A stretch of 64,000 nt of DNA from an uncultured Thermoplasmata archaeon (lineage in GTDB: Archaea > Thermoplasmatota > Thermoplasmata > Lutacidiplasmatales > UBA184): contig CAVVLX010000006.1 in the NCBI GenBank assembly GCA_963749195.1, forward strand, positions 862,722 to 926,721. Reading direction: 5' to 3'. This document shows positions 10,856 through 34,059 of the stretch, piece by piece. Under the pieces are notes generated by a model. It did not search any database. It was not told where the DNA came from and was given only the letters and a program-made list of their open reading frames with translations. Position numbers and translations under genes: made by a program. Every line of letters starts with the position of its first letter. The stretch's first letter is position 1.

Positions 10856-10860
10856 GAGGG

Positions 10861-15174: not shown

Positions 15175-16191
15175 TTACCCCTTGGCGGGCTTCGAAAGGC
15201 GGAGCGCCATCGTGAGCGTCGTGAGCCTCCGCTGGAATCCAATCTCCTCGAGGGCGGCGACCGCGGATCGCGCGGGATCGGGGACCGCCGCCACCACGGA
15301 CGTGCTGCCCTCTGACCGCATCCAGGCAACTCCTTCGGTGACTAAGTCGAGCAGACGTTCTCGCGGGGCTAGTGGATCCACGGCGGGGAGAAACAAGATC
15401 CCCGGAGACGGCGGCGGTCTCCAATAGCCCCTCAGATACGCATGGGTCCCTCCCGGAGGACCAACGGCCCACGCTCGCCGTTTCACCCCCCGCATTTGGG
15501 CGATCACCTCGAGATGGGTCAGTGTACCCGGAGTGGGTGGAACGATCGAGGAAAACGGAGTCGGAATTCGAGCACGGCACCATTCGGCCGCCGCCTTCGC
15601 TTCGGAACGACCGACCAGTCGACTCTCGCTGGGACGCACGGAATGACTCGCGATTTGGGCGAGGTCGTCCCCCCGCAGCCATTCCGTCGTCTGAATCGAT
15701 TCATACCCACGGTGCTGATACAGCTCGATCGCCGGACGGTTCTCCCCTTCCACGTCTAACACGGCCCATGCCTTCCCTCGCGCGCGGGCGACCTCCTCCG
15801 CCCGATCCATCAGCTGCGAGCCGACCTTGCGCCGACGGTGCGTCGTTCGGACCCCGACGCCCGCGACATATCCGTAGGATTTTCGAAAACCGAGTATGGT
15901 CGTCCCCACGCGCTCCGCTCCGTCGGTAGCTACGAAGAAGTCGGCGAGAGGCCGCCCCATGGTTCGCATGAGTCGGAGCAAGAACCAGGTCCCGGGTCGA
16001 AAGAGGAACTCCATCGAGTTAGGCCCGGTATCATCCATCGCGAGCAGGTGTTCAAACGGGCCGGTGCTCTGGGAAAGGATCTCGACGAAGGCGGGCCCAT
16101 CCGACCGCCGCAGCTCCCGAATGCCGATCGTCCCCGGAGCCCGAGCCTCGGTGGCAGAATTGTGGGACTTCTCCGGCGCTATTGAATTCAT
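15175..16191 (-). CDS. GNAT-family N-acetyltransferase (two tandem GNAT-like halves)
   Basis: Acetyl-CoA binding motif VGVRTTHRRRKVGSQLMDRAEEVARARG followed by NRPAIELYQHRGY. A second, degenerate GNAT-like half ends in AVAALEEIGFQ. Confidence 0.8.
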   Translation of the reverse strand: MNSIAPEKSHNSATEARAPGTIGIRELRRSDGPAFVEILSQSTGPFEHLLAMDDTGPNSMEFLFRPGTWFLLRLMRTMGRPLADFFVATDGAERVGTTILGFRKSYGYVAGVGVRTTHRRRKVGSQLMDRAEEVARARGKAWAVLDVEGENRPAIELYQHRGYESIQTTEWLRGDDLAQIASHSVRPSESRLVGRSEAKAAAEWCRARIPTPFSSIVPPTPGTLTHLEVIAQMRGVKRRAWAVGPPGGTHAYLRGYWRPPPSPGILFLPAVDPLAPRERLLDLVTEGVAWMRSEGSTSVVAAVPDPARSAVAALEEIGFQRRLTTLTMALRLSKPAKG

Positions 16192-16359
16192 CGTGGTTCG
16201 ACAGAAGACTCACGGAGAATTCACTTTGGGTCGAATCCGAGCCTTCGTCAAATGCGGGCGGATGGCATCGGCCCGATTGGTGGGGGGACGTCCAGTGCAC
16301 ACTAGAGCGCCCAACGTGTCGAGATGATTCGCTGAAACGTCGCCGAAAGAGCCGGCCGC

Positions 16360-19149
16360 TTAGGTCGATCGTCGTGACGATCGTCCATATAACAAGGCAA
16401 ACGGAAGAGTTTCGAACAACGAGGGCACGGAGAGGTAACGTGATGCCTGCCCGCTCGCGATGAGAGCCGACCGCGAGACCAAGCCGTCCTGCCAAACCGT
16501 GGGCGCCTCATCGGGGAGAACGATCCTCGAGCCCTTCCAGATGGCCCCGCTCGGCGGCGCGAGCTCCGAAACGTTTCGACTGCCCAAACCTCTCCCGATC
16601 GCTACAAGTACCCATTCTGATCCCGCGACGCGGGCGAACGACAAGACCCCGAAGTTTTGGCCACGTTGCTTCCGCAAAGGGGTGTACGCCCCTTCGGTCA
16701 GGAGCTGAAGATGTTCCTTTCGGAAGTGAAGGGAACGCTGAGTGACGTACAGTTTGAGATTCCCGGTCCACCAATAGCGAACGAGACCCCGAATTTTGGA
16801 CCCAGACCATGGACCCGCGGCCGAGGAGACTCGCTCCAACGATCGTTCAAGCCCGGGGAAGTCCACGAGACGCCGGTTGTCGGGGTCGACGAAATGCAAC
16901 GCCGATCGTTCAGATCCCTGATACACGTCGGGGATTCCGGGTACGGTTGCCTTCAGCACGGTGGTTGCGAGCGAGTTCCAGAAACCTAAGTAGGCAATCG
17001 TTCGGCACCACTGATCGAGTTCGTGTCGCAATTCGCTCGGGCTCTGCGTCGTGAGCAGCCAGGTGGCAAGACGGGACACGGCGGCCTCGTACGCGAGGTT
17101 TGGGTGGCGCCAATTCGTCCGTACCTTCGCTTCACGGACGGCCTTGATCGCGTAGGCTCGAAAGCGGTCGGCGAACGTTGCCGCATCCCGCGCGTCGACC
17201 GGACGAACACTCAGGAGTGCCTGGAGCAGTAGGTAGGTATCGGCACGACTCACTCGAGGTTCGTCGGGGCCGGAGCGGGTTCGCTCCTCGATCCAACGGA
17301 ACCAAGTCGGAATGCGCTGGTTCCACTCCTTCGCTCGCTCCGTGAGGGCGGCTAACCGGGCCCGTGCGTCTTCTCCCCATTTCGAATCGTGAGTCGTGGT
17401 CGCGGTGAGCGATCGCGGAGCCGCGGACTGCCGAGCGATCATGAACTCGTGGAACTCAGCGACGGAAGTCCCGTAGTGAGCCGGGTCCGCTCCCACCTCG
17501 TTCAGCGCAAGATAGGGCACGTATCGGTAGAGGGCCGTGTCCTCGATGCCCTTGGCGGCGACCGCAGGAGCCCACTGCTGCCACGGCCCCTGAATACGAA
17601 GTCGCGCTCCGCGCTCGATGGATAACTCCCTTGGGGGTTCGTCGCTTTCGATCCCTCGTCGAATCCGTCGGAGTAGGTGCTTCCGAACGTTCGAATCGTA
17701 ACGGAATCCACGGCGCTCCGCACGCCGAAGGGCGAGAACATCCGGCGTACGAACGCGGCCGGGGCGGAGATATGTCCGATAAACGGTCAACCCCGCCGTG
17801 AATGTATTGAGGGCGGACCCGACCTGACGGACTTCGACCTGTCCGCGGCGAGGGCGGCCGGGGAGTTCACTAAATCGTCGTGCGAGTCGGCGCGTTTCCG
17901 ATCGAAAGAGTTCCCGCTCAATTTTCCGCTTGGCCCGGAAGCCCACTTCGTCGAAGGTCTGCCGGCTCTGGGTCACCCAACGATAGGTCCCAGCCAGCGA
18001 CTTCGCTCCTCGAGGGTCGAGGAAGACCCCAGTGAGTCGGCTCATCGCATCATAGCCCGTCGTCCCGTTGACGGGCCACTCGGCGGGAAGCGTCTCTGAT
18101 GGTGCGAGGATTTTCTCGACCCAGATGGCCTCGGAAACGTGGCCTCGAGGGCCTCCTGCTCGCAGTGCCCGTCGCAACCGTCGGAGGTACGCCGTGGGGT
18201 CGACGATTCCGTCGATGTGATCGATCCGCAGCCCGTCCAAGTAACCCTGATGCACCCAGCTCAAGATTCGTGCATGGCTCTGGCGAAAGACCCTAGGATC
18301 CTCGACTCGAATTCCAATGAGATGGTTCACGTCGAAGAATCGCCGGTAGTTGACCCGTCCGTCGTCCCAATACGGAACGAGGCGATACACCTGGTCGTTC
18401 AGGAGGTCTCGCGCAAACTTGGAGAGGCGTCCACTCGGCCCCGTCCGCCGGAATTCGTCGAGCACCTCCTGAACGACCTTTCGCCGCTCGGGCGGGGCGG
18501 ACATTCCCGTAAGAATCGATCGACGGAAATCTTGCCCCCGCCTTGGTGGGCTGAAGCTCGACGATTTACTCTCGGAGCCGCCCTGGCATCGAAGGCGTAC
18601 TCGTTCGACAAATCGATGCGTACCTCGAGCTCCCACGGGGTAGCGCAACCCCTCGACGTCGAAGTAGAGAGCGTGGGAACCAAGATGTAGGGCGACTCGC
18701 CCGGTTCGGACCGATTGATCGAGCGGGCGCGAGAGTACCGGAAGGACAACGCGCGACGAGTCTCCGGGGTCCGGAGTCCAATCCACGTCGAACGCTCGCG
18801 CGAATTCCGACCGAGGCCCCCGTTGGAGGACATCTCGCCACCAAGGATTCTCGGGTGTCGCGGCGAGGTGGTTGGGGACGATGTCGAGGATCAGGCGCAT
18901 TCCGCGCCGATGGGCCGCGTGCGCGAGCGCACGGACGCCTTGCTCGCCCCCTCGGGCCGGATCGGCCTGGGTTGGGTCGATGACGTCGTACCCATGAGGG
19001 CTCCCGGGCCGGGCGGCGAGGAGGGGGGATAGGTAGAGGGTATCGATCCCCAGCTTCTCCAAGTACGGAAGCGCTCGAACGGCCGACCGCAGATCGAACT
19101 CGGAACGAATCTGCAATCGGTACGTCGCGACGCTCGGTCGCACCGCCAT
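16360..19149 (-). CDS. treY: Malto-oligosyltrehalose synthase (TreY)
   Basis: N-terminus ATYRLQIRSEFDLRSAVRALPYLEKLGIDTLYLSPLLAARPGSPHGYDVIDP and LILDIVPNHL, GLRIDHIDG, TTTHDSKWGED. 929 aa. Confidence 0.92.
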   Translation of the reverse strand: MAVRPSVATYRLQIRSEFDLRSAVRALPYLEKLGIDTLYLSPLLAARPGSPHGYDVIDPTQADPARGGEQGVRALAHAAHRRGMRLILDIVPNHLAATPENPWWRDVLQRGPRSEFARAFDVDWTPDPGDSSRVVLPVLSRPLDQSVRTGRVALHLGSHALYFDVEGLRYPVGARGTHRFVERVRLRCQGGSESKSSSFSPPRRGQDFRRSILTGMSAPPERRKVVQEVLDEFRRTGPSGRLSKFARDLLNDQVYRLVPYWDDGRVNYRRFFDVNHLIGIRVEDPRVFRQSHARILSWVHQGYLDGLRIDHIDGIVDPTAYLRRLRRALRAGGPRGHVSEAIWVEKILAPSETLPAEWPVNGTTGYDAMSRLTGVFLDPRGAKSLAGTYRWVTQSRQTFDEVGFRAKRKIERELFRSETRRLARRFSELPGRPRRGQVEVRQVGSALNTFTAGLTVYRTYLRPGRVRTPDVLALRRAERRGFRYDSNVRKHLLRRIRRGIESDEPPRELSIERGARLRIQGPWQQWAPAVAAKGIEDTALYRYVPYLALNEVGADPAHYGTSVAEFHEFMIARQSAAPRSLTATTTHDSKWGEDARARLAALTERAKEWNQRIPTWFRWIEERTRSGPDEPRVSRADTYLLLQALLSVRPVDARDAATFADRFRAYAIKAVREAKVRTNWRHPNLAYEAAVSRLATWLLTTQSPSELRHELDQWCRTIAYLGFWNSLATTVLKATVPGIPDVYQGSERSALHFVDPDNRRLVDFPGLERSLERVSSAAGPWSGSKIRGLVRYWWTGNLKLYVTQRSLHFRKEHLQLLTEGAYTPLRKQRGQNFGVLSFARVAGSEWVLVAIGRGLGSRNVSELAPPSGAIWKGSRIVLPDEAPTVWQDGLVSRSALIASGQASRYLSVPSLFETLPFALLYGRSSRRST

Positions 19150-21602
19150 CTACCCAACTCGGACTCGGAGGCGGTCGCCCAGCTGCCGAAAATCTGCCCA
19201 CCACGCGCGGGCGGTTTCGTCCCCTCCCGCCGAGGCCATCTGGAGGGTGCCGAGGGGGCGGTGGAGCAGCTCATAGTACCGGTTTTGCACTCGAGAGAGG
19301 TCGACGTCCATGGCCGCGTCGTCCAGCAAGCCCGTGAGATCATTCAAAAGATGGAGCGTCGCCACCTCGTTGGGATGAGCCGCGAGCTTGTCAATCAGCC
19401 GCTCCGCCGCCCGTGACCAGGCGAATCCCAACGCGCGGGCATCGGGGGGAAGGCGCATGCGCGCGAGCTCCGCGAGCCAACTGGCCGCCTGGGCCGGCTC
19501 CGGCGGGTCTCGCTCCAGCGCGTGCTGCGCTTCGAGGTTCAAGAAGAACTCGGTGACGGCCCGAAGGGATCGGGGAGCCGGAGAATTGGAGTATCCGAGG
19601 TAGCGAAGGGCGGGCGCCGTGGCCTCGTAGATCTGGCGGAACGAGTTCTCGACACCGAGGCGCGTTGCCTCCAACATTCGCCCGATGATGCGTCGCTGCT
19701 CGTCCCCGAAGAGGTACCGGAGGGAGTACGTCCCGTACCGAAATGCTGATCGACGAGTCGGATGGATTCGGCGATATCGCCTCGCTCAAACGCAGCGACC
19801 AGGGCCCCGATACTCGCCGCGTACGCCTCGTTTCCCTGGAACGGACGCACGCCCCCGTAGAGATTGTACCCCCCGATATGGAGCGCGCCGTAGGTAAAGT
19901 GCCCTCGCTCGCGCGTTAGCTCCGAGACGACCGAGGCCTGGCCGACGGCGAGCCGCGCCGAACCGACGACGTGCAGCTCCCGTTCGAGCCGCTCGACGGT
20001 GTAGCAGAAGAGTCGGGCTCGTTCGTCATATTCTTCGAACAGCGAGCTCAACGCGTAGTGAACGCAAACCCCCTGCAGGTCCACGCGATTGGACGCGACG
20101 GATCGTTCATAGATCGCCGCGCCATCTCCATCCGTGGGAACGTTTCCGTGGGCGACGGCGAGCCGACGTTTGAACTCGGTCTCGAAACTTTCCCCGAAGA
20201 GACGTTCGGCTAGTTGGACCGCCCGACTTGCGTACCGAAGCACCTGGACGGTTTCGATCCCGCCCAGGTCATCGAAGAACCAACCGCAGCTCGTGTACAT
20301 TTGCTGGAGATGGCGCTGCAGCTCGAGCAGTTCGAGTACGGTCACGACCTCGGATTCGAGAAGCGGGCGACGCCGGTGTTCGGCGAGAAATCGTTCGACG
20401 CGTTCGCGAGTTCGCTCGCCGACGACTTCCACATAATCGTCCCTCGCCTGCCAAGGGTCCGTCAGGAATTCCGCAAGCCGCGCTTCGTACTTCGGGTTCA
20501 AGGAGTCGCGCAGCCAATCGAGCGTCCCGCGCAGTGGAGTCCGCCACTCCTGTTGCCAGCCGGGATGGATGAGGGAATTGCAGCCGCAGTTGGACCGCCA
20601 CCGTTCGACGCCGTGCGCACAGCTCCACGAGGTGTTCTCTTTGATCTCCGCCTCCCACTCAGCGGGGTGACGATTGAGGAACTCGCCGTAATTCGTGAGC
20701 TTCGCCGCCCCGTCATGCTCGATTTTCTGGAGGGCAAAGGCAAGCGCCATATCGCCGAGGCGATGATGATGGCCATACGTCTCGCCATCGGTGGCGATGT
20801 GGCTCAGTTGACCTTCCTCGGGTGGAAGGTCGGAGGAAAATCCCCCGAGCAGCCGATCGGCGAATGCTCGACCGTCGTGGAGAAGCCCCTCGAATGCGAG
20901 GGCATGCGACGTCGGTCCGTCGTAAAAGAATACGGCGATCGAGCGATCCCCCGGAGGAACGCGGACGTCGTAGGCGCGAGTGGTCGGGATCGCTGAGGAA
21001 TCGGTGGTGATCCACTCGACCGATCCTCGACGGCGGTAGCGGAGCGCCTGATTCGGCGCCAGGATCGTGAATCGGATCCCCTCGTCGACGAGCAGCCCGA
21101 GCGTCTCGTTGTCCACCGCCGTTTCCGGGAGCCACATTCCCTCGGGCGCTCGTCCGAAGCGGCGTTGGAAATCTCGAACGCCCCAGCGGATTTGCGTACG
21201 CCGATCGCGACTGTTCGCCAACGGAAGGATCTGATGATGGTACGCCTGCGCGAGCGCGCTTCCGTGGCCGGAGAAGCGTTCTTGACTCTCTCGATCTGCG
21301 TGGAGTATCGCCGCGTAGACCTCAGGGGCTTGGGTTTCGAGCCACCGAAGCAGGGTCGGTCCAAAGTCGAAACTGATCCGGGAGTAGTTGTTCCGGATCT
21401 CGGTAATGAATCCCTCTTTGTCGACCACCCGGGACCACGCGTTGGGTCGGTAACATTCCGCCGTGATCCGTTCGTTCCAATCGTGATACGGCTCCGCCGA
21501 TTCCTGGGTCTCGACCACTTCGAGCCAGGCGTTCTCCCGCGGAGGCTGGTAGAAGTGCCCATGGACACCGATGTAGTGCAACGAATCACCGGCTCCGGTC
21601 AA
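19150..21602 (-). CDS. Glycoside hydrolase family 57 protein with C-terminal DUF3536-type domain; reading frame broken by one nucleotide near 19729-19740
   Basis: ORF 19539-21602 begins HYIGVHGHFYQPPRENAWLE...YHDWNERITAECYRPN (GH57). ORF 19150-19677 (another frame) continues the same family. Its frame, read upstream, gives YGTYSLRYLFGDEQRRIIGRMLEATR, directly after ...VDQHFG of the first ORF. The two parts join into about 817 aa if one nt is restored. Confidence 0.85.
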
Positions 21603-23439
21603 ACACGCCGAAGGAAAACGGGTTCAGTTCGAGCCGTTGCGCGGATCCTGAGTCCACGAGGTCTGGGAGGCGACTCCCCGGTCCTGCCCATCGTCGGTCT
21701 GAAGAATCGAGTCGACGTTGCCACGTACCTTCCGGAAAAGGAAGGAGTTGCGACCCGAGAGTCGTCCCGAAGTGATAGATCACGACGACGGCCGGTCGAG
21801 CCCCCGGCGCCGGGAAGGTGACGACCACGGAGTTCTCGGGGCCCAAGGAACGAATGTCCTCGGGCCGCCATCGGGCACGCGCTCCCAGCGCCCGGCGCAG
21901 CGAGAGCAGGTGGCGATAGAGGTCGAGGAGCTCCCGATGACCGGGTCGTTCCCTACGATCGAAGTCGATGCGGGATCTCTCGAAGGTGGTGAGGGACTGA
22001 GGGTCGGGGATTTTCTCGGGGTTGGGGTGCCCGGGAAACCCCGCGCGCCGTCCTTCGCGGACCCGAATCCCGAGCTGGGGGTCGTGATGGCTCGTAAAGT
22101 ACAGGAACGGGGCCGTTTCTCCGTACTCCTCGCCCATGAAGAGCAGCGGTAGGTAGGGAGAAAGGAGGAGGAACCCGGCGGCGAGCTTGAGCGGTTCGAA
22201 AGGGACGAGGGCGCTCAATCGTTCTCCGAACGGCCGATTCCCGATCTGATCATGGTTTTGGACGCAAACGACGAAGTGATCAGGTCCGAGGTCGCCCGCG
22301 GACGCGCCGTGCCGTCGACCTCGGTATGCCGAATACTGTCCGGTCAACACGAAAGCGTCCCGCAATGCCGCGGGAATCGACTCCGGCGACACAAAGTCCG
22401 CGTAGTACCCATCTCGTTCCCCCGTCACCCGACTGTGGAAGGCGTGGTGGAAGTCGTCGTTCCACAGCGCATCGAATCCAAGCCCGCCGCGAACCCGCGG
22501 GAGCACCACCCGTGGATCGTTGAGGGAGCTTTCCGCAATCATGTGCACGAGTCGCCCTTGCTCCGTGCCGATGGCGTGAATCCTATCGGCGAGTTCGGCC
22601 AGAAACGGTTGGGCGGTAGGGTCGATGATCGCGTGAATCGCATCGACGCGGAGACCGTCAAGGTGCCCCTCCCGCACGAGATACGCGGCGCTTTCGAGAA
22701 AGTATCGGCGGACGTGGTCGCTGCCCGCGCCATCGAAGTTGAGCGCGGCTCCCCAGGGAGTCCGATAGCCCGCGGTGAAATACGGCCCGAACTCCTCCAG
22801 GTGGCTTCCCTCCGGTCCGACGTGATTGTACACGACGTCGACGATCAGGGCGAGCTCGCGCGCATGGCAGGCGTCCGAGAGTTGCTGGAGCCCCGCGATT
22901 CCCCCGTAGGAATGCTGCACGGCAAACGGGAAGACCCCGTCATAGCCCCAGTTGCGCGTTCCGGGGAAGGCCGCGACCGGGAGCAGTTCGATCGCGGAAA
23001 TTCCGAGGTCATGTAACGCATCGAGGCGATCCGCGACGCCCGCGAACGTTCCGCTCGACGAGAACGTGCCTACGTGGAGCTCGTAGAACACCAGCTGCTC
23101 CCGCGCGATCCCGGCCCATCCGTGGTCCGACCAAACGAACTGCTCGGGGGCAACGATCGCCGAAGGACCCTCCACATCGGCGGGCTGACTTCGGGACGCC
23201 GGATCGGCGCGGAGAGGTCCTCCGTCGAGTCGATAGCCGTATCGACTTCCCGGAGGAACGTCGCCGACGTCGACGCCCACATATCCTTCTCCGAGCGGGG
23301 TCATCGTTGTGCGACGCTTCGCGTCGCCCAAAAGGTCGAGCTCGACGACCTTAGGGGTTGGTGCCCACACGCGAAATCGAACGGTGCGGTCAGAGGTTCG
23401 CGTGGCGCCGAGCGGTTCGGAGAGGTCCAGAGACGTCAC
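21586..23439 (-). CDS. treZ: Malto-oligosyltrehalose trehalohydrolase (TreZ)
   Basis: ORF 21586-23886. VRFRVWAPTPKVVELDL, GISAIELLPVAAFPGTRNWGYDGVFPFAVQHSYGG, VDVVYNHVGPEG, GLRVDAIHAI. GTG 23439 overlaps the glgB stop (GTGA) and gives a family-typical 617 aa. The 149-aa upstream extension overlaps glgB and is Arg-rich. Confidence 0.9.
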   Translation of the reverse strand: MTSLDLSEPLGATRTSDRTVRFRVWAPTPKVVELDLLGDAKRRTTMTPLGEGYVGVDVGDVPPGSRYGYRLDGGPLRADPASRSQPADVEGPSAIVAPEQFVWSDHGWAGIAREQLVFYELHVGTFSSSGTFAGVADRLDALHDLGISAIELLPVAAFPGTRNWGYDGVFPFAVQHSYGGIAGLQQLSDACHARELALIVDVVYNHVGPEGSHLEEFGPYFTAGYRTPWGAALNFDGAGSDHVRRYFLESAAYLVREGHLDGLRVDAIHAIIDPTAQPFLAELADRIHAIGTEQGRLVHMIAESSLNDPRVVLPRVRGGLGFDALWNDDFHHAFHSRVTGERDGYYADFVSPESIPAALRDAFVLTGQYSAYRGRRHGASAGDLGPDHFVVCVQNHDQIGNRPFGERLSALVPFEPLKLAAGFLLLSPYLPLLFMGEEYGETAPFLYFTSHHDPQLGIRVREGRRAGFPGHPNPEKIPDPQSLTTFERSRIDFDRRERPGHRELLDLYRHLLSLRRALGARARWRPEDIRSLGPENSVVVTFPAPGARPAVVVIYHFGTTLGSQLLPFPEGTWQRRLDSSDRRWAGPGSRLPDLVDSGSAQRLELNPFSFGVFDRSR

Positions 23440-25379
23440 CTCCCCGCGCGGAGCAAGAGAGCCCCGAGGGGAGGCAGGTCGAGCACCACGGAATCCGGGA
23501 GTCCGTGCAGTGGCGTAGCGGTCGCCTCGGCGACGCCGGTGCTTCCCGCCCCGCTCCCTCCGAACTCGGTCGCATCGCTGTTGGCGGCGATCGTCCAACT
23601 GCCCTCGATCGGGACTCCGATCCGAAATGCCGCTCGGGGGACTGGGGTGAAATTCAGGACGGCCAGCAAAGCCTCCGAAGCCCCAGATCCACGTCGGAGC
23701 AACGACAGCACGCTCTGTGCCGCGTCCTTCGGCTCGACCCAGGCGAATCCGCTGGGGTCGTAGTCGCGCGCGTACAGTGCGGGGGTCGATCGATAGATTT
23801 CGTTCAATCGTCGAACCCACGCTTGCATACCGGCATGGGGCGCTGACTGCAGCAAGTGCCAGTCGAGGCTCCGGTCGTGCTCCCACTCCCGCTCTTGGCC
23901 GAACTCGTCTCCCATGAACAGCAGCTTCTTCCCGGGCATCACGAACATGTACGCGTACAGCAATCGAAGATTGGCGCGCCGCTGCCAGAAGTCTCCCGGC
24001 ATTTTCCCGAGGAGCGATCCCTTCCCGTAGACGACCTCATCGTGGGAAAGGGGGAGAATGAAGTTCTCGTGGTAGGCATACACCATTCGGAATGTTAGTT
24101 CATCGTGATGCCAGCGCCGATACGCCGGATCCCGACCAAAATACTCGAGCGTATCATGCATCCAACCCATGTCCCACTTGTAGCCGAACCCGAGTCCCCC
24201 CACGGTCGTGGGTCGAGAGACCATCGGCCACGCCGTCGACTCTTCGGCGATCGTCTGCGTGCCGGGAAACTGTCCGTACAGGGATTCGTTCAACCAGCGA
24301 AGAAAGTGGATCGCGTCGAGATTCTCGCGACCCCCTTGTTCGTTCGCCAGCCACGCACCCGGCGCCCGGGAGTAGTCCAGGTAGAGCATCGATGCAACCC
24401 CATCCACTCGAATTCCGTCGCCGTGGTACCGATCCAGCCAGAACGCCGCGCTGCTGCCGAGGAAGCTGCGGACCTCGTGGCGACCGTAGTTGAAGAGAAA
24501 CGTGTTCCAATCCGGATGATATCCCCGCCGGGGGTCCGCATGCTCGAAGAGGTGCGTTCCATCGAAGTACGCGAGTCCGTGCTCGTCACGGGGAAAGTGC
24601 GACGGAACCCAATCGAAGATCACGCCCACGCCCGCTTGATGGAGCGCGTCGACCAGGCCCATCAGTTCCTGGGGCGTGCCGTAGCGTGCGGTCGGGGCGA
24701 ACAAACCGATCGGCTCGTAGCCCCAGGATCCGTAGAAGGGATGTTCCATTAGCGGGAGGAACTCGACATGCGTGAAGCCCATCTCCTGCGCATACTCGAC
24801 CAACTTCGGTGCGGCCTCCCGATAGGTCAGCGATCGATTCTCCTCCTCGGGAACCCGACGCCAGGAACCGAGGTGAACCTCGTAAATCGACACGGGGGCG
24901 TCCAGGCGGAACCGATCGCCCCGCTGCGACATCCATCGGGCGTCGTGCCATTCATAGTCCAGATCCCAGACGACCGAAGCCGTTCCCGGAGGTCGCTCGT
25001 GGAGAAAACCGAAAGGATCAGCCTTGTCCACTCGGAAGCCCGCATAGCGCGATTCGATGTGGTACTTGTAGAGCGCTCCCCGGTGCGCCGACGAGAGCGT
25101 TCCTTGGAAGATTCCCGAACTGCCCTCCTCCCGCAACGAGTCCCGCCGAGGAGTCCACTCGTTGAATTCCCCCACCACGCTCACTCGTTCGGCGTTGGGA
25201 GCCCAGACGGCGAAATGCGTCCCCTGCGACTCCGAGCTTCCCGCCGGATGTGCCCCCATGCGCTCGTACAAGCGCAAATGAGTTCCTTCGTTGAACAGAT
25301 ACACGTCCAGATCGGAGAGCGTCGAAGTGGAAGGTCGCGAGGCGGTGTGAGCGCGCGCTCGCGTCGAGCCTACGGTCAT
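23436..25379 (-). CDS. glgB: 1,4-alpha-glucan branching enzyme (GH13 GlgB)
   Basis: ORF 23436-25643. HFAVWAPNAERVSVVGEFNEW, HPFYGSWGYEPIGLFAPTARYGTPQE, VIFDWVPSHFPRDEHGL, GIRVDGVASMLY, IAEESTAWP. ATG 25379 overlaps the malQ stop (ATGA). Confidence 0.92.
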   Translation of the reverse strand: MTVGSTRARAHTASRPSTSTLSDLDVYLFNEGTHLRLYERMGAHPAGSSESQGTHFAVWAPNAERVSVVGEFNEWTPRRDSLREEGSSGIFQGTLSSAHRGALYKYHIESRYAGFRVDKADPFGFLHERPPGTASVVWDLDYEWHDARWMSQRGDRFRLDAPVSIYEVHLGSWRRVPEEENRSLTYREAAPKLVEYAQEMGFTHVEFLPLMEHPFYGSWGYEPIGLFAPTARYGTPQELMGLVDALHQAGVGVIFDWVPSHFPRDEHGLAYFDGTHLFEHADPRRGYHPDWNTFLFNYGRHEVRSFLGSSAAFWLDRYHGDGIRVDGVASMLYLDYSRAPGAWLANEQGGRENLDAIHFLRWLNESLYGQFPGTQTIAEESTAWPMVSRPTTVGGLGFGYKWDMGWMHDTLEYFGRDPAYRRWHHDELTFRMVYAYHENFILPLSHDEVVYGKGSLLGKMPGDFWQRRANLRLLYAYMFVMPGKKLLFMGDEFGQEREWEHDRSLDWHLLQSAPHAGMQAWVRRLNEIYRSTPALYARDYDPSGFAWVEPKDAAQSVLSLLRRGSGASEALLAVLNFTPVPRAAFRIGVPIEGSWTIAANSDATEFGGSGAGSTGVAEATATPLHGLPDSVVLDLPPLGALLLRAGR

Positions 25380-27400
25380 GATGCTTCCTTTCCTCGGCGG
25401 AGTGAGTCGACCCTGCGAAGAGTTTCCAGGGTTGGAGGATCCTTTTCGAAGTCTCCCCATTCGGTACGCATTCGACGGGCGAAGTTCCGCCGACGGCGGC
25501 CGGCGTATCCCGGAACATTCTGCGGAACGGTCGACCCCTCGAGATCTTCCACGTTCACGAGTACGATACGGGCCGGGGAATCGGCGAGCGCGACGAGCGC
25601 GTTCCGATACGCTTCCCGGGCCGATGCGCTGGGGGCGAGCCAAGGTCCCTTCTCCTGGTCAGCTGTCGCGTCGCGGGTTCTCTCGCGACGATCTTTCCAG
25701 TAGGCCGCAAAGGGAAGCATGTCGTGGGTGTTCATGGACGCGAGCGAGTCTCGAGGGACTCGGCGGAACCGTCCCTCCGGCCCCGGCGCGTCCCACTCCA
25801 GTTGCGCCACGAACGATCGGAGTAGTCCGTGGGTGCGGAGTGCGGTGCGGACTTCCGGCGGAACCGTCCCCAGATCTTCCCCGATGAGGGCGGCGTGGGC
25901 GCGCGACGCCTCGATCAACAGGATCGCGTAGAATTCTTCGGAGTGGTATCGAACATACGCCCCATCCCGAGCCGAGAAGCCCGCGGGGACCCAGAAGAGA
26001 CGGTGGAATCCCATAACATGGTCGATCCGGAGGTATCGGCCCATCGCTAAGTGCGCCCGCAAGGCTGCGCGGTACGATCGATAAGCTTGCTCGCGAATCC
26101 GTACGGGATGTGGCGGAGGCAGGCCCCATTGCTGCCCATCGGGAGCCCCGGGGTCGGGCGGAGAACCGATCTCGGCCCCCGGGACGTAGGCTTCCGGGTC
26201 CTCGAACACATCGAACCCTGCGGGGTGCACGCCGATGGGTAGATCCAGATAGAGCTCGACTCCCAGCCCCTGACCTTCCGCTACGACGCGGCGGAGTTGA
26301 CGATGAGCGACCCACTGGACGTAGCGGTGATACAGCGCGTGCGTGGGGCTCGATGCTCGTCCGTCGGCGGATTGGTCCCCCGAGCGCGCGTACTCCCCTT
26401 CGCGGGACGGCCGTTCTGCCCGAGCGCGAAATCGGGCATATCGGTCGAGCGCCGTCGCTCGAGCGGCAAATCGATGGAACGACGCCCGCCGGCGACTAGG
26501 GGACGCCTCGAGATCGCGCGCCATTTGAGTGAACACCCGGCGACGGAGCCGGGCCACGGCTCGGAAATCGATCACGGTCCGGCGCTCGAGTCGCGCGACG
26601 TCTTTTCGGAATGAGGGAGAATGAACGAGCGTTCGAACCCGTCGGCTATGGTGAAATTCGGGTTCGACGGTCGGGTCGGCATAGACCTCGTTCCAGAAGC
26701 GACGGCTCACCGGACGGTACGGGCTCGGGTCGTAAGGATGGTCGAGAAAGCTCGAGAGCATCGGAAGCGCTCCGACCAGGGACGCGCCGCGATGGCCCGC
26801 CCATCGGACGACTCGTCGTAGCGCGGAGAGATCCCCGCAGCCCCAATTACCCGGCGAACGAAGAGCGTATGTGGGGACGAAGATCCCCCACGACCTTTTC
26901 GAAACAGAGGGGGGGGCGAGCGCGCTCGGCGCGACGAAAAGAGTGGTCGTGACGTGCCAGCGATCGGCGTTCAGTTCGAGCAAGTGGTATCCGATCGGGA
27001 GACGGAACGGGAGGTGCAGCGACCGTCGGGCCCTTCCCCGAGGGCCGCTTCCCGTTCGGACGGACAGGTCCGCCCGACCCTTTCGGCCATCTTCTCGAGT
27101 CAACAGGGCGGTCACCGTCGTCCCCTCCCGGTGGTCGTCGGGGAGGTTGAGCACGAGCCGATGTTCGAGGTTCGGGTGCAGGACGCAGACCGGCGGCACG
27201 ATCGGCGGGGGAGCAGAATCGGCCCGGAGGACTTCCGGCGCATCTTGCGGCCGATCAATCGGAACCCCGAGCAGCCGCAACACGGCACAAAGGGCGGCCC
27301 CGGCAACCGAGCGACGGTGGCCGCCGGTGTCGATGTACACCGGTAGAACTCCATGCTGTTCGGCGAGTTGTGCGAGAGCCCGGGGGCGGTGCCGGGTCAT
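25376..27400 (-). CDS. malQ: 4-alpha-glucanotransferase (amylomaltase, GH77 MalQ), long-N-terminus type
   Basis: WGIFVPTYALRSPGNWGCGDLSALRRVVRWAG, IDHVMGFHRLFWVP, IGEDLGTVPPEV, NTHDMLPFAAYW. 674 aa. Confidence 0.92.
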   Translation of the reverse strand: MTRHRPRALAQLAEQHGVLPVYIDTGGHRRSVAGAALCAVLRLLGVPIDRPQDAPEVLRADSAPPPIVPPVCVLHPNLEHRLVLNLPDDHREGTTVTALLTREDGRKGRADLSVRTGSGPRGRARRSLHLPFRLPIGYHLLELNADRWHVTTTLFVAPSALAPPSVSKRSWGIFVPTYALRSPGNWGCGDLSALRRVVRWAGHRGASLVGALPMLSSFLDHPYDPSPYRPVSRRFWNEVYADPTVEPEFHHSRRVRTLVHSPSFRKDVARLERRTVIDFRAVARLRRRVFTQMARDLEASPSRRRASFHRFAARATALDRYARFRARAERPSREGEYARSGDQSADGRASSPTHALYHRYVQWVAHRQLRRVVAEGQGLGVELYLDLPIGVHPAGFDVFEDPEAYVPGAEIGSPPDPGAPDGQQWGLPPPHPVRIREQAYRSYRAALRAHLAMGRYLRIDHVMGFHRLFWVPAGFSARDGAYVRYHSEEFYAILLIEASRAHAALIGEDLGTVPPEVRTALRTHGLLRSFVAQLEWDAPGPEGRFRRVPRDSLASMNTHDMLPFAAYWKDRRERTRDATADQEKGPWLAPSASAREAYRNALVALADSPARIVLVNVEDLEGSTVPQNVPGYAGRRRRNFARRMRTEWGDFEKDPPTLETLRRVDSLRRGKEAS

Positions 27401-30400
27401 GGCGTCGGCCTGGCCGGACCGAGGATGTAATCGATCCCTCGAAGGGGAACCTCGACCCAGTCTGGGCGGTTCTGGAACTCGTACGCGAGTTCGTAAACCA
27501 CTTTCTCCGCCACGTAGGCTTCGAGCAACAGGTCAAACTCCGCGCGCTCCTTGGGTAGGAACGTGCAGTCCGCCGTTGCGGCACGATATGAACGCAGGTA
27601 CTCCGCACAGACCCATTGGACCCACAAGCGCGCGGCGGGAGCGAGTTCGGAACGCGCGCCGGCGGCGGCCGGGGACGGAACGACGAGCTGCCGCAGGGCG
27701 GCGTTCGCGGCATAATCGAACGACCGGAGCATCCCCGCGACGTCGCGGAGCGGCGAGCGCTTGATCCGACGCTCGCTCACGGGGCGAGAAGGTTCGCCCT
27801 CGAAATCAATGATGATGAACTCCTTCCCGGTCCAGAGGACTTGTCCCAGGTGGAAATCCCCATGGATCCGCGTTCGCTTCGCCGACAGTCGCCGGCCGAG
27901 CAGGGCGCGAAACCGAGCGTCGACCTCCGCTTCGCGAGGCAGGACGCTATCGGCGAGGGTCGCCACCAGACCGGTGAGCGACGACCGATGCTCGCGCAGG
28001 ATCTCGAACGCTTGACGGCGATACGACTGCATCGTTTGATAGATCGAGCGGACATAGAGCGGATCGAAGGGTTCGGGCGCGAACGCGGGATCGACTGAAT
28101 CGCCGGCGAGGGCGCGATGCAGCTCTGCCGTCCGTTGGCCCAAGAGGCGGGCCAATTCGAGATACGGACCGATCAGATCGGCCACCTCCGAGGGCGGCGC
28201 CCCCGAACGGATCTCAAAGCGAGTGGCGGCCCCGTCCGGAAGGGGCCGGCCCGCGGGAAAGCGCGCTCGAACGCGGTCGAAGTAGGCCGACAGATTTCGA
28301 AGCGTCATATCCCACGCGTCGCCCTCATTGGCGACAAATCGATGGACGGTGACGAGCGTCTCCTCCGATCCATGCTCGGGGATCAGTTCGAGCGTCCCGG
28401 CGAGGGCCGCGGTATGCGGAAATCGGTTCCCCGTGGTCAGAAATCGCCCGATCTCGGCCTCGGGGTTGATCCCCGATTCGATCGTGCGGAACAACTTGAC
28501 GATGTATCGGTCCCCAACCCGCGCCGACGAATTCGATTGTTCGACGCGCACGGGCTCCACCGGCAGAGCCAGGTCCTCGAGGAGCGTCTCCCGGTGAAAG
28601 GCGTCGGTGTGGAGGGCGACCAATTCCCCTGCCGACGAATGCTGGCGGGTGCCGTGGGCCATGTGCTCGAGGAGCGCTCGGACGAAGACGGGCTCCTGCG
28701 CCGCATCGTAGAGCACGCTCTTTCCCTCCGGGCCCCCGGGGGCAAAGATGGCCAGCACCGAGGCGGGTGCGGTCTTGAGGATCTCTTCGCCGCGAGGCCC
28801 GTCGGCGAAACCGAGGGGGAGAAGGTACCGCTGGGGATCGCCCGTCGCAAACTCGACCTCCACGACGACGAGTTGGAACGACGCTTCGCCATGGCCCATC
28901 GGGGTCTCCTGACGCCAGTGGACGGCGGTCGGCGTCTGTCCCTTCCCTCGAAACCAGCGCCGTCCCCAGATGAATCCCGGGAGCGCCGCCTGGAGCTTCG
29001 CTCGAACGTCATAATGTTCCACCGTCTCCCAGCCCGGTGGCTCGGCGACCTCGAGCGGCTGCCAGCGTGTGGTCGGCGCCAGGCCGTTTCCGGGGGCCGT
29101 TCGCTCGAGACGGAACCAGAGAAAGTCGTACGGCCCGAGGGAGAGTCGGTAGGGGGACGCTTCGATCTTCGGGAAGACCGTCAACCCCGCCAATTCGACC
29201 GGGACCGCACCCTCATAGGCGCGCAAATCGAGTTCCACGCTTTGCGCGAACCGAGAGAGATTCGCCACAACGAGCACGTTCTGGGTTCCGTCCGTCCGTA
29301 TGTAGGCGAGCGTCCGCGCGTTCTCGGGCCGCAGAAAAATGATCGAACCGCGACCGAAGACTCGGTTCTGCTTGCGGAGCGCGATCAGTCGTTTCGTGTG
29401 CCAGAGCAAGGAACGCGGATTGGCCTGTTGAATCTCGACGTTCACGGCTTCGAAGTGATATTCGGGATCGACGATCACGGGGAGATACAGGCTCTGCGGG
29501 TTCGCCCGGGAGAAGCCCGCATTCCGGTCGGAGCTCCACTGCATGGGGCTCCGAACGCCGTTCCGGTCGCCGAGGAAGATGTTGTCCCCCATGCCGATTT
29601 CGTCCCCATAGTAGAGGACCGGGGTTCCTGGAAGCGAAAGGAGGAGGCCGTTCATCAGCTCGATCAGCCGCCGGTCGTTGTTGAGCAACGGAGCAAGACG
29701 ACGGCGGATCCCGAGATTGACTCGCGCTCGGGGATCGGCTGCGTAGACGCGATACATGTAATCGCGCTCCTCGTCCGAGACCATTTCGAGCGTGAGCTCG
29801 TCGTGGTTCCGTAGAAAGAGCACCCATTGAGCGTCCGCCGGGATCGCCGGAGTCTGTTCCAAGATGTCGACTATCGGAAAACGGCTCTCGGTTCGGGTCG
29901 CCATGAAGAGTCGAGGCATCAGTGGAAAGTGGAACGCGGTGTGGCATTCGTCGCCTCGGCCGGTCCCAAAGTATTGGGCGGCGTCTTCTGGCCACTGGTT
30001 CGCCTCGGCGAGCAGCATTCGACCGGTGAATTTCGAGTCGATGTGCGCGCGCAGCTTTTTCAGAAAGGCGTGGGTTTCGGGAAGGTTCTCGCAGGTCGTG
30101 CCTTCCCGCTTGAAGAGATAGGGCACGGCGTCGAGCCGGAGTCCATCCACCCCCAGGTTCAGCCAGAAGTCGAGGACGTCAAGGACGGAGCGTTGCACCT
30201 CGGGATTGTCGTAGTTTAAGTCCGGTTGATGGAAGTAGAATCGGTGGAAGTAGTACGCGCGCGCGACATCATCCCAGGCCCAATTCGACGTCTCGAAGTC
30301 CTTAAAGATCAGGCGTACGCCGGCGAAGCGGTCGGGCGAATCGCTCCAGATGTAGAAGTCCCGTTCCACCGAGCCGGGGGCCGCGCGTCGCGCGCGTTGG

Positions 30401-30795
30401 AACCAAGGATGTTGGTTCGAGGTGTGGTTGAGGACGAGCTCGGTGATCACCCGGATTCCATGATCGTGGGCGCGTCGTAGAAACCCGCGAAAGTCGCGGA
30501 GGGTTCCGAAACTCGGCTGGACATTGCAGTAGTCGGAGATATCGTAGCCGTCATCGCGCATCGGCGACGGGTAGAAGGGGAGCAGCCAGATCGCGGTCAC
30601 TCCGAGGTCGCGCAGGTAATCGAGCTTCCCGGTGAGCCCGACAAAATCCCCCTGTCCATCGCCGGAACTGTCGGCGTAGGCGCGGACGTGGAGCTCGTAC
30701 ACGAGCGCGTCCTTGTACCACGTCGCCTCATCTTCGCCGGCCACGAATTGGTCGGAGGCGGAGTCGTCGTCGGCGGAGGAACTCTTCACTTTCAT
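27397..30795 (-). CDS. treS: Trehalose synthase fused to maltokinase (TreS-Pep2/Mak)
   Basis: N-terminal GH13 TreS: [85 protein letters not shown]. C-terminal ~450 aa is kinase-like ([27 protein letters not shown]). 1132 aa. Confidence 0.92.
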   Translation of the reverse strand: [1132 protein letters not shown]

Positions 30796-32831
30796 GGAGC
30801 GGCTCTCTGCGGCTCGAACGCGAGAATGTGGGCCGGGATCTCTTGGGGGCGCAGCTCCACGAAATTACGGCGCCCTTGCCACAGCCATCGACCGCCGGTC
30901 AGGAGGTCGTGAACCTCGAACGGTTGGTCGGAACCCAGCCCGATGGAACCCAAGTCGAGATCGGTCCACCCCGCTTGGACGTGCGTCGGGTCGAGGTTCA
31001 CAAAGATTAGCAACCGGTCCCTCCCATCGGCGGTCGATCGGGAGTAGCCGAGGATCCGGTCGTTATCGACCGATTGGAAGTGAAGAGTTCCGGCCTCGCG
31101 GAGGGCTCGATGGTCGTGACGGAGTTGATTCACTCGAGTGACGACGTTGGCGATTGAGCGGGGTGCGTCTCGGTCCCAGACGCGCAGCTGATACTTTTCG
31201 GAATCGAGGTACTCCTCCGAACCCGGGTGTAGCGGTCGAGACTCGGTGAGCTCGAATGCCGGCCCATAGATGCCGTAGTTGGGAGAGAGCGTCGCGGCCA
31301 GTACGAGTCGGGCCACGAACGCGGGTCGACCTCCTTGTTGCAGATACTCGGTAAGGATATCGGGGGTGTTCGGCCAAAGATGCGGGCGAAAGTACTCTCG
31401 CACGACTGGACTGTTGATCTCCTCAACGTAATCCTGGAGCTCCGTCTTGGAATTCCTCCAGGCAAAGTAAGTGTATGAGTGCGTAAAACCGACTTTCGCT
31501 AAGTTGTACATGACCTTCGGACGCGTGAACGCTTCCGCGAGGAACATGACTTCAGGATGCTTCGAGCGGACCGTCGCGATCAGCCACTCCCAAAATGGGA
31601 ATGGCTTGGTGTGGGGATTGTCCACGCGAAAGCGTCGAACTCCCTGATCGATCCAGAAATCAACGACCTCGCGAAGCGCCTCCCACAATTCGGGCCACGC
31701 GGCAGACTCGAAATCAAATGGGTAGATGTCGTCGTACTTCTTTGGGGGATTCTCCGCCGGGCGAATGGAGCCATCCGCCCGGTGGCGGAACCAGTTGGGG
31801 TGCTCCGATACCCAAGGATGATCGGGCGAACATTGAAAGGCGAGGTCGAGAGCGACATCCAGCCCCTGAGCCCGGGCCGACGCCAACAGGTGTTGGAACT
31901 CTTCCAGGGTGCCTAAGTCGGGGTGAATGGCAGTGTGTCCACCGACGGCCGAGCCAATCGCCCACGGGCTGCCGGGATCCGAATCGGTCGCGATGGGGTC
32001 GTTGTTCGGCCCGCGACGATGCTCGATGCCGATGGGGTGGATCGGGGAGAGATAGACCACGTCGAACCCAAGGCCCGCGATGTACGGGAGCCATTGTTCG
32101 ACGTCGGCGAATGTTCCGGATCGGCCCCGAACATTGGCGGTGGAGCGCGGAAACAACTCGTACCAAGCGCTACATCCCGCATCCGCAGGGTCGACCGTCA
32201 CTCGAAGGTTATGCCGCTCGATCGTGACCCGGGCAGGCTCGGGTTCTACGGAGAGTTCCTCGGGGGATAGCGCAAGCGCCCGCGCCACGGCCGCTGCGGC
32301 GTCGCTTTCGACAAGGTGCTCCAGCTCGGTGGCGGCCTGGCGGATCCGCCGAGCCATCGATCCCCGGGCACTTTCCAGCAGGGTCCGAAGAATCGCAACT
32401 CCCTCGGACAGATCGGCCGGTTGCCAGGACCGGTTGACGGTTCGCTTTCTCAGCTCCTCGCGCCAAGTACTTAGGGGATCCACCCAAGCACGGACGCCGT
32501 ACTCGAAGGTGCCCATCTCCGGCAGCGGGAAGCTTGCCTGCCAGCGATCGTTGTTCAGCGGTCGCATCCGCACCCTCGACCAGAAGCGCGTTCCGAGGCG
32601 GCGGTACTCGAGGAAGGCGGTGATCGCGTCCGTGCCGTCGACGAAAATGTCCGCCTCTACTCTTACCGAATCCCCGGCCAGTCGACGAATGGGGTATCGT
32701 CCTCCGTCGACCGCTGGAGTCACGTTCTCAATCGCGACTCGCCTTCGGCCATCGGGTAGTTTCGTCAGATCCTCGCTCCGATCTCCACAGGCTTCGGCGG
32801 GACAAGCTCTGACGGAGATGCGACCGTTCAA
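30792..32831 (-). CDS. glgE: Alpha-1,4-glucan:maltose-1-phosphate maltosyltransferase (GlgE)
   Basis: GlgE-specific N-terminus IENVTPAVDGGRYPIRRLAGDSVRVEADIFVDGTDAITAFLEYRR...NNDRWQASFPLPEMGTFEYGVRAWVD. Catalytic region FRVDNPHTKPF, LAEAFTRP. Confidence 0.92.
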   Translation of the reverse strand: MNGRISVRACPAEACGDRSEDLTKLPDGRRRVAIENVTPAVDGGRYPIRRLAGDSVRVEADIFVDGTDAITAFLEYRRLGTRFWSRVRMRPLNNDRWQASFPLPEMGTFEYGVRAWVDPLSTWREELRKRTVNRSWQPADLSEGVAILRTLLESARGSMARRIRQAATELEHLVESDAAAAVARALALSPEELSVEPEPARVTIERHNLRVTVDPADAGCSAWYELFPRSTANVRGRSGTFADVEQWLPYIAGLGFDVVYLSPIHPIGIEHRRGPNNDPIATDSDPGSPWAIGSAVGGHTAIHPDLGTLEEFQHLLASARAQGLDVALDLAFQCSPDHPWVSEHPNWFRHRADGSIRPAENPPKKYDDIYPFDFESAAWPELWEALREVVDFWIDQGVRRFRVDNPHTKPFPFWEWLIATVRSKHPEVMFLAEAFTRPKVMYNLAKVGFTHSYTYFAWRNSKTELQDYVEEINSPVVREYFRPHLWPNTPDILTEYLQQGGRPAFVARLVLAATLSPNYGIYGPAFELTESRPLHPGSEEYLDSEKYQLRVWDRDAPRSIANVVTRVNQLRHDHRALREAGTLHFQSVDNDRILGYSRSTADGRDRLLIFVNLDPTHVQAGWTDLDLGSIGLGSDQPFEVHDLLTGGRWLWQGRRNFVELRPQEIPAHILAFEPQRAAP

Positions 32832-32949
32832 CGCACGGCCCTTGAAACTTGTTTCGGGTCGACAAGAAACCCAGCCTTTTCACACAAGCGCCAGGTCACA
32901 TTGTTTGCATGAGCGATCTCGGGTGAGCACCGAGCCCATTCAGCAGTCG

Positions 32950-33732
32950 CTACAATCCTGGGGCTCTCGGGTTTTCCATGGACCTGGTTTGAGGAGGGCG
33001 GGGAAACAACAGCCTTCCCCACTGGAATCGCGGGCGGTTGAGCCGCTCCAAGAGCGGTGGGAGTTCGGCGAGCGTGCGAATCGTAGGAACCTCCGCAACG
33101 CGCGCTTGATCGTCGCGGTTAACCCAGACCGGTTGCAAACCGCTCCGCCGCGCGCCCTCTACGTCCGCCGAGAGGGAATTCCCTACATGCATCGCCTCGC
33201 CTGGGGCGCAACCGGCCCGTTCTAGCGCGCGAGTGAAAACTTCCCGAGCGGGTTTCTCGGCCCCCACCTCTTGTGAATAGGTGACACTCCCGAAGAAACG
33301 GTCGATCCGATGGACCTTTAGCTCCGACAATAACCTGTCATTGTGATTCGATATTACTCCCAATCGATAACCCTGAGCGGTCAGCTTAGTGAGAACGGTC
33401 CTAGTTTCCGGATATAGCCGGACGTTGGATGGGTCGTCGAATACCTGCTGCACTGCGGCTCTGATTTCGTCTCTCCGCCTTCGTATTCGCAAGTGGTCCA
33501 TAACGCAATCATCGTACAGGCGCCAATACTCATCCATCCGTCCCACAAAGGAATAGATTAGGCTGCCCAGTTCCTGATCGACTTGCGAGAGCGCCTCCTC
33601 GAATCGAACTTCGACTATCGGTAATCCAAGCCTCTCAAAGGTCGCCGTCCACACTACCGCGGGACGACTCACGGACGGGGGCGTCCATGCCAATGTCCCT
33701 CCGAAATCGAAGAAGACTGCTCGAAGACTCAT
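32950..33732 (-). CDS. HAD-superfamily hydrolase (COG1011-like)
   Basis: ORF 32950-33903. HAD motif I at the N-terminus (MSLRAVFFDFGGTLAW), VISNHN (motif II), GAEKP and VGNSLSADVEGARRSG (motifs III/IV). ATG 33732 is chosen because HAD proteins start just before motif I. Confidence 0.75.
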   Translation of the reverse strand: MSLRAVFFDFGGTLAWTPPSVSRPAVVWTATFERLGLPIVEVRFEEALSQVDQELGSLIYSFVGRMDEYWRLYDDCVMDHLRIRRRRDEIRAAVQQVFDDPSNVRLYPETRTVLTKLTAQGYRLGVISNHNDRLLSELKVHRIDRFFGSVTYSQEVGAEKPAREVFTRALERAGCAPGEAMHVGNSLSADVEGARRSGLQPVWVNRDDQARVAEVPTIRTLAELPPLLERLNRPRFQWGRLLFPRPPQTRSMENPRAPGL

Positions 33733-33975
33733 TGACTCGGTGGGAGGCGGGTTGCCGTTTGCCCAAATAGCTTTTTGAACGCAGGTACCGACTTGCCCTG
33801 CGATTTGGAAGCTACTTCGGGAAAGCCCAGCCGAGGGAGGGGATCTTCGAAAAGTTCGGTACCTAATCCGGTCCATACCCTTGTCAAGGGGCCGTAGCGC
33901 CATTGGGCGGAAGGAGACATCTCATCACAACCCCCTGCTTAGCGAACGGTGCGCGCAGTCCTCCACGATGACTAT

Positions 33976-34008: not shown

Positions 34009-34059
34009 CGGGCAATTCCAACAGGAGGGACCTTAATCTAACCGAGCGGTTTTCGAGCC

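Follow-up and report, generated by a model that had tools for sequence, protein, structure and literature searches.

The GlgE pathway of alpha-glucan synthesis is present in ~14 % of sequenced genomes (PMC11046441). Here, we describe a locus that combines this pathway with the trehalose-forming enzymes TreY and TreZ, located at positions 16360-32831 of a 64-kb stretch of DNA (64,000 nt, hereafter the window) on contig CAVVLX010000006.1 of an uncultured Thermoplasmata archaeon. It consists of seven co-directional genes on the minus strand, in the order GlgE, TreS-Pep2, MalQ, GlgB, TreZ, GH57-DUF3536 and TreY. The GlgE pathway of Mycobacterium and Streptomyces uses the same four biosynthetic enzymes, likewise together with TreY and TreZ, and the GlgE motifs are conserved between these systems and the window (PMC11046441). 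In the actinobacteria, however, TreS and Pep2 occur as two separate proteins, TreY and TreZ are accompanied by a GH13 debrancher (TreX/GlgX), and a GlgC-GlgM route provides a second way to maltose 1-phosphate, whereas in the window TreS and Pep2 are fused, the block holds no GH13 debrancher, treZ and treY are separated by a GH57-DUF3536 gene, and all parts are found in a single archaeal operon. An earlier note on this DNA had called the trehalose/glucan cycle best known from actinomycetes. The cycle is not restricted to these: TreS-Pep2 fusions are common outside the actinobacteria (PMC11046441), and an archaeal GlgE pathway has already been reported in the Thermoplasmatales Picrophilus torridus, Acidiplasma cupricumulans and Cuniculiplasma divulgatum (PMC6355812; PMC11046441). 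These three belong to the same archaeal class as the host of the window and share its four-enzyme pathway, but they are low-GC acidophiles.

The enzyme set of the window has a described counterpart in PUL18, a polysaccharide utilisation locus (PUL) of Pontibacter sp. SGAir0037, where a GH13_9 GlgB, TreS, GlgE, TreZ, a DUF3536-GH57 protein, TreY and a GH77 MalQ are encoded at one locus (Bax & Jurak 2024, PMC11206854), and where the GH57 protein, PoGH57, has the motifs HGHFY and ETYGHH in common with that of the window. Unlike the archaeal block, PUL18 belongs to a Bacteroidota host, is a SusC/D-type PUL with extra amylases, has another gene order and carries glgB on the opposite strand. Other bacterial clusters come nearer in organization, with the full gene order in two of them (L062 and L071, see below) and a five-gene core elsewhere, but show gaps of up to ~670 nt between adjacent protein matches and 30-71 % identity to the window proteins; GH57 is missing in the Acidimicrobiia, and TreZ and TreY are missing in Thermomicrobium. 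Among archaea, Sulfolobus shares the TreY/TreZ glucan-to-trehalose chemistry (PMC11046441), although it relies on the GH13 debrancher TreX and is without GlgE, TreS and Pep2, whereas the window has GH57-DUF3536 beside TreY and TreZ.

The block is not a new kind of system; it is an old, established one, largely anticipated in the literature. Our data suggest that it was probably imported whole from bacteria into the ancestor of a Thermoplasmata group, once and long ago, and has been passed on by vertical descent ever since.

Gene content and organization of the block

Gene identities were assigned by Pfam and NCBIfam profiles, the NCBIfam scores (in bits) being judged against the curated cutoffs, and the seven consecutive minus-strand genes and the names given to them in the earlier note were confirmed by these scores. 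The first gene, glgE (30792..32831), encodes the Pfam domains GlgE_dom_N_S, Alpha-amylase and GLGE_C. Residues 28-670 of its product align with the structures 5vsj and 3zss of Streptomyces coelicolor GlgEI at 574 bits, with RVDNPH, LAEAF and NTPDIL conserved, and the whole product is 100 % identical to a public protein of 679 aa (P0001) encoded on a contig of 942,606 bp. The start position, TTG at 32831, is the longest-ORF (open reading frame) choice and agrees with P0001; it is uncertain, relatives being annotated with 646-704 aa. The following gene (27397..30795) encodes a fusion of 1132 aa of trehalose synthase and maltokinase, in which the TreS part (residues 26-564; motifs RLDAV, LAEA and NHD) reaches 879.7 bits with TIGR02456 (cutoff 678.35), and the Pep2 part (residues 587-1124; HGDFH and IDFEG; Pfam Mak_N_cap and APH) reaches 462.3 bits with TIGR02457 (cutoff 375.05) in the same ORF. 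Next is malQ (25376..27400), encoding a GH77 4-alpha-glucanotransferase with a MalQ_N domain (Glyco_hydro_77, 1.3e-85; TIGR00217, 239.2 bits, cutoff 205.65; RIDHVMG, GEDLG and THD).

The branching enzyme encoded by glgB (23436..25379; 648 aa) is of the bacterial GH13_9 type, with the Pfam domains CBM_48, Alpha-amylase and Alpha-amylase_C, the motifs RVDGV, AEES and SHD, and 920.3 bits with NF003811 (cutoff 741). Its start at ATG 25379 is supported by the ATGA overlap with malQ as well as by the length of the relatives (649-654 aa). It is followed by treZ (21586..23439; GTG start at 23439; 618 aa), the gene for malto-oligosyltrehalose trehalohydrolase (TIGR02402, 645.6 bits, cutoff 538.8; RVDAIH, IAES and NHD). 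TreZ relatives have 615-620 aa, and the closest of them, in the loci L001 and L004, show the identical 4-nt overlap with glgB. The sixth gene (19150..21602) encodes a glucan hydrolase/transferase with the Pfam domains Glyco_hydro_57 and DUF3536 (347 bits) and the motifs WLPETA and TDGETYGHH, and is frameshifted. The last gene, treY (16360..19149; 929 aa), encodes malto-oligosyltrehalose synthase (TIGR02401, 780.8 bits, cutoff 498.65; RIDHIDG, VEK and THD) and gives a product identical to the public protein P0127.

Profile searches found no GlgC, GlgA or GH13 debrancher in 16360-32831, in agreement with the earlier note; scores stayed under the cutoffs, and the best score of the GlgX models in the block, 72.7 (cutoff 640.9), fell on the TreZ ORF itself. 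The NTP-transferase gene at 4428-5444 was considered as a hidden glgC and rejected, its score being 66.9 bits against a GlgC cutoff of 424.9.

Direct reading of the junctions agreed with the earlier description as well: glgE/treS, treS/malQ and malQ/glgB each share ATGA, glgB/treZ shares GTGA, and the GH57 stop codon TAG directly abuts the ATG of treY. The spacing along the block is hence -4, -4, -4, -4, +4 (or -17) and 0 nt. The exception is a proposed 17-nt overlap of treZ and GH57, which depends on a start at TTG 21602. Since the public annotation of the GH57 gene implies a start at TTG 21581, and since the TreZ/GH57 spacers in relatives measure 3-4 nt, translation of GH57 probably begins at TTG 21581, leaving a 4-nt spacer after treZ. 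From the overlapping stops and starts, one transcript with coupled translation is predicted. A promoter and terminator scan of 15000-34500 gave fewer matches than shuffled sequences, the promoter model being that of bacterial sigma-70 and uninformative on archaeal promoters, and the 118 nt that precede glgE showed no convincing TATA box or B recognition element.

A frameshift in the GH57-DUF3536 gene

The GH57 span, 21602..19150, has 2453 nt and is not divisible by 3. After ...VDQHFGTG, the N-terminal ORF leaves the frame and continues as an R/S/P-rich tail up to a stop at 19539; TYSLRYLFGDEQRR..., which is the conserved GH57 continuation and provides the C-terminal 175 aa, lies in another frame at 19677..19150. 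The earlier note had treated GH57 as one ORF and overlooked this 1-nt frameshift. The site lies at 19731..19743 on the minus strand, where one base is missing in or beside a G run (19732-19734). In particular, the tblastn frame switch falls between 19731 and 19743, and the alignment with the Thermoplasmata loci L006 and L007 (minus strand; GGTAC-GGGAC in the window versus GGCAC[C/G]GGGAC) places the missing base at ~19732-19735. With one base added, the gene encodes an uninterrupted protein of 817 aa; of the ~8000 homologues found, almost all have ~808 aa. The public record of the gene (P0128, window 19539-21581) is a 680-aa protein with the out-of-frame C-terminal tail.

Further 1-nt homopolymer frameshifts relative to the orthologues in L001 are found in MetRS (minus strand, ~39175-39185) and in the C-extein of ThyX (plus strand, ~41229-41238). 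Because these housekeeping genes are also hit, we read all three frameshifts as assembly indels, which probably affect the gene calls on the contig; for GH57, an assembly error rather than a pseudogene is the most likely explanation of the sequence, and the public 680-aa annotation is probably wrong. It is unlikely that GH57-DUF3536 is a genuine pseudogene and that the operon runs without GH57 in this organism. The frameshift is, after all, present in the given sequence, and the public annotation has a truncated product, but the deletion is located at a homopolymer, the same type of lesion occurs in MetRS and ThyX within 22 kb, neither side of the shift shows extra stops or decay, and the relatives are intact.

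Distribution of the gene order

A scan by MalQ alignment over one genome per GTDB species gave 80 loci, which together with five metagenome contigs made 85 loci, and the eight protein parts (TreS and Pep2 counted apart) were mapped onto these by tblastn. The full order GlgE-TreS/Pep2-MalQ-GlgB-TreZ-GH57-TreY was found in at least three Thermoplasmata metagenome-assembled genomes (MAGs), L006, L007 and L012, and also in bacteria, i.e. in the Dehalococcoidia MAG H68_708 (L062) and in Legionella saoudiensis LS-1 (L071); a Chloroflexi contig (L033) has the same order from pep2 onward. The core order GlgE-TreS-Pep2-MalQ-GlgB was present in 29 of the 85 loci, 10 of them archaeal and 19 bacterial, the latter including Thermomicrobium, Acidimicrobiia, Acidobacteriota and Omnitrophota. 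TreS and Pep2 are fused in 31 of 37 loci. TreZ-GH57-TreY adjacency is seen in eight loci, and in the Acidimicrobiia TreZ is next to TreY, with no GH57. The arrangement is common to at least 10 archaeal contigs, among which GlgE identity goes down to ~55 %. The synteny search that the earlier note had proposed thus showed an arrangement common to these contigs and to bacteria, and so not peculiar to the contig studied here.

Some loci depart from the common pattern. Among the Thermoplasmata, treZ and glgB are swapped in L010 (11214-15579), L008 is truncated, and in L009 (1449-3464; 18160-21884) a GH15 gene lies upstream and treY was not detected after GH57. The cluster of the cultured L. saoudiensis LS-1 (NZ_LN901322.1, 4825-20241) contains all eight parts, ordered alike, with a GC content of 38.6 %, which suggests that the block has moved between bacteria, too. 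A 4.4-kb contig of a MAG labelled Bathyarchaeota (L015) carries a TreY-MalQ pair, with MalQ 35 % identical; either a second lineage of archaea holds part of the system, or the contig may have been wrongly binned.

Host of the contig and origin of the block

Downstream of the block, the window encodes a thermosome (775 bits, cutoff 400), an archaeal Pus10 (401 bits, cutoff 200), DUF655 and DUF6015, and the closest relatives, at 69-90 % identity (nearest GlgE and GH57, 69-85 %), are all found on Thermoplasmata-labelled contigs of 100-377 kb. On these markers and relatives, the contig is archaeal and belongs to a high-GC, soil-type Thermoplasmata, as the earlier note had already called it archaeal. 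An independent Joint Genome Institute assembly (L001, a 377-kb contig) contains the cluster together with matching flanks, i.e. an Xer-like recombinase, DAO, ThyX, MetRS, PHP_C, a cyclase and HAD, and L006 shares with the window the tRNA-Cys gene and the HAD gene upstream. Comparison of the composition with the flanks, also suggested in the earlier note, showed that the cluster matches its surroundings: tetranucleotide correlations (r) are 0.90-0.92 between cluster and flanks versus 0.92-0.94 between flanks, relative synonymous codon usage correlates at r=0.986 between cluster and flanks against a null mean of 0.974 from flank subsets, and the GC content is uniform along the window.

Phylogenetic trees were built by neighbour-joining on tblastn high-scoring segment pairs with 100 bootstraps, and were unrooted or midpoint-rooted; the archaeal set comprised the window, L001, L003, L004, L006-L010 and L012. 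For each of GlgE, TreS, Pep2, MalQ, GlgB, TreZ, GH57 and TreY, the bipartition between archaeal and bacterial sequences received 100/100 bootstraps, as did that of the 2863-column concatenate. Archaeal-bacterial distances had a mean of 0.70 and a minimum of 0.57, bacterial-bacterial distances a mean of 0.60 and a maximum of 0.92, and distances inside the archaeal clade reached 0.59. Because the archaeal-bacterial distances fall inside the bacterial-bacterial range, the archaeal copies appear to be nested in bacterial diversity. In addition, the GlgB of the window is of the bacterial GH13 type and not of the archaeal GH57 type (NCBIfam; PMC12525153). The single, ancient import of the whole block from bacteria stated above is the simplest reading of these results, its direction being taken from the distribution and the distance ranges.

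Transfer of the whole block between domains had also been proposed in the earlier note. The proposal stands as far as the bacterial type of the block and its movement as a unit are concerned, given the same order in Dehalococcoidia and Legionella and an archaeal clade inside bacteria, but not if it is taken to mean a recent transfer. The idea that the arrangement is special to this contig, or a new event, fails in view of the at least 10 archaeal contigs, the ameliorated composition and the flanks syntenic in L001. The opposite case considered there, namely proteins that fall into long-established archaeal clades in which this gene order recurs, proved half true.

It seems quite improbable that the cluster was ancestral in Archaea or was passed from Thermoplasmata to bacteria. 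The trees are effectively unrooted, and the archaeal clade goes deep, its internal distances (up to 0.59) being close to the minimum between archaea and bacteria (0.57); moreover, the Picrophilus pathway was confirmed in an earlier study as not stemming from horizontal transfer, according to PMC6355812. The 80 loci of the MalQ scan, however, contain only one archaeal class plus the Bathyarchaeota fragment, next to labels of many bacterial phyla, bacterial-bacterial distances exceed archaeal-bacterial ones, and the GlgB is of bacterial GH13 type (PMC12525153).

A recent horizontal acquisition in the form of a strain- or species-specific genomic island is very unlikely. Such an island would fit the compact, overlapping block, the tRNA-Cys gene (36305-36377) within ~3.5 kb and the tyrosine recombinase gene (45851-46774) within ~13 kb, but the recombinase and the genes from there up to the cluster (DAO, ThyX, MetRS, PHP_C, cyclase and HAD) are syntenic in L001, the composition is ameliorated, identity among the archaeal homologues has fallen to 55 % (GlgE) and 40 % (TreY) with the order kept, and the support of the archaeal clade is 100 %. 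Weakest of all, a chimeric join or bin contamination, i.e. a bacterial fragment misassembled into an archaeal contig, would account for seven proteins with mostly bacterial homologues at 55-60 % identity in an assembly that does hold indel errors, but it is effectively refuted by the same cluster with archaeal-side flanks in the independent L001 and partly in L006, by tetranucleotide and codon usage indistinguishable from the flanks at uniform GC, and by closest relatives (69-90 % identity) on Thermoplasmata-labelled contigs.

The tyrosine recombinase gene (minus strand) and the tRNA-Cys gene were considered as island boundaries and rejected, the recombinase and the intervening genes being syntenic in L001. 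Because of this synteny, the recombinase is probably a housekeeping Xer-type enzyme and not an island integrase.

Several points weigh against ancient import from bacteria followed by vertical descent of an intact operon. The neighbour-joining trees have no outgroup root, so that the direction of transfer rests on distribution and distances, and the bacterial sample was picked by MalQ similarity. Pfam searches on the immediate flanks of L008-L010 and L012 gave no domain-diagnostic genes, the archaeal label of these loci being that of the record titles. None of OtsAB, TreT, GlgA and GlgM, as a source of trehalose or primer glucan, was found within the 64-kb window. Finally, if the GH57 frameshift were real, the operon would be partly degraded in this strain.

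If the block was indeed imported from bacteria, as we consider probable, the complete seven-gene order common to both domains would represent a 16-kb bacterial operon that became fixed in an archaeal chromosome and stayed collinear over deep divergence. The locus adds to the organisms with the GlgE/trehalose-glucan cycle a lineage of high-GC Thermoplasmata that has environmental metagenome bins as its named relatives, and would make a tidy example both for inter-domain operon transfer and for the ways in which uncultured archaea handle carbon storage and stress protectants.

Proposed pathway and role of GH57-DUF3536

The mechanism is deduced from what is established for these enzyme families (PMC11046441); the enzyme activities, co-transcription and physiological role are inferred. 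The family assignments agree with the earlier pathway reading, i.e. TreS, Pep2, GlgE and GlgB acting in succession, with TreY/TreZ, MalQ and GH57 alongside. TreS would isomerise trehalose to maltose, and the fused Pep2 domain would convert maltose and ATP to maltose 1-phosphate, from which GlgE is predicted to transfer maltosyl units onto alpha-1,4 chains; the GH13 GlgB would then put branches into the glucan. In the reverse route, TreY would act on linear chains and turn their reducing-end maltosyl unit into a trehalosyl unit, and TreZ would free trehalose from the TreY product. Leftover short malto-oligosaccharides could be disproportionated by MalQ into GlgE acceptors and TreY substrates, and GH57-DUF3536, by analogy, may trim or rearrange the outer chains. 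The physiological role would be carbon storage and stress-protectant buffering.

GH57-DUF3536, abundant and strongly conserved yet little characterised, is the component with the least clear role in a very widespread operon. It carries HGHFY in conserved sequence region (CSR) I and ETYGHH in CSR-IV, and lacks HxHLP and ELF(Y)GHW, the fingerprints of branching enzymes. PoGH57, the sole characterised DUF3536-type member, shares both of its motifs, HGHFY and ETYGHH (PMC11206854); it is not a branching enzyme, is hydrolytic and trims branches with a degree of polymerisation above 6, with possible 4-alpha-glucanotransferase activity (PMC11206854). A fold search with the AlphaFold model of an 85 %-identical Thermoplasmata homologue (predicted local distance difference test, 87.6) returned GH57 structures only, and these weakly (template modelling scores of 0.43-0.58), with the maltose-forming amylase 4cmr ranked best, ahead of amylopullulanases, 4-alpha-glucanotransferase and branching enzymes; the search thereby assigned no particular function. 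Sequence searches of the PDB with the repaired GH57 gave only 20-bit matches. In the full version of the operon, GH57-DUF3536 always lies between treZ and treY, in both domains. Tentatively, we suggest that it could be a non-GH13 partner of TreY and TreZ, standing in for TreX/GlgX by chain trimming, debranching or maltose release, although the odds are rather against this. If it holds, the seven-gene block would be a self-contained cycle between trehalose and glucan, able to cross domains as a unit.

Neighbouring genes

A HAD-IA phosphatase-like gene (32950..33903, minus strand; Pfam HAD_2 and Hydrolase) lies 118 nt upstream of glgE, with NCBIfam matches at subfamily level only, all under the cutoffs. 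In L001, too, a HAD gene precedes glgE, and the gene of the window shows 58 % identity to the corresponding one in L006; the gene is a conserved neighbour of the block, and to connect it with sugar-phosphate metabolism would be guesswork. Further along the window, 7836-11367 (minus strand) holds a trio of MoxR AAA+, DUF58-VWA and DUF4129 genes, and 11450-15007 (minus strand) encodes a Kelch-repeat protein of 1185 aa; both appear unrelated to the cluster. The thyX gene (39475-41777, plus strand) contains an intein of ~450 aa with helix-turn-helix and HNH endonuclease domains (Pfam Intein_splicing and HNH), which ends at ...VTHN|SVNEYSARYS; ThyX of L001, with 296 aa, is without intein.

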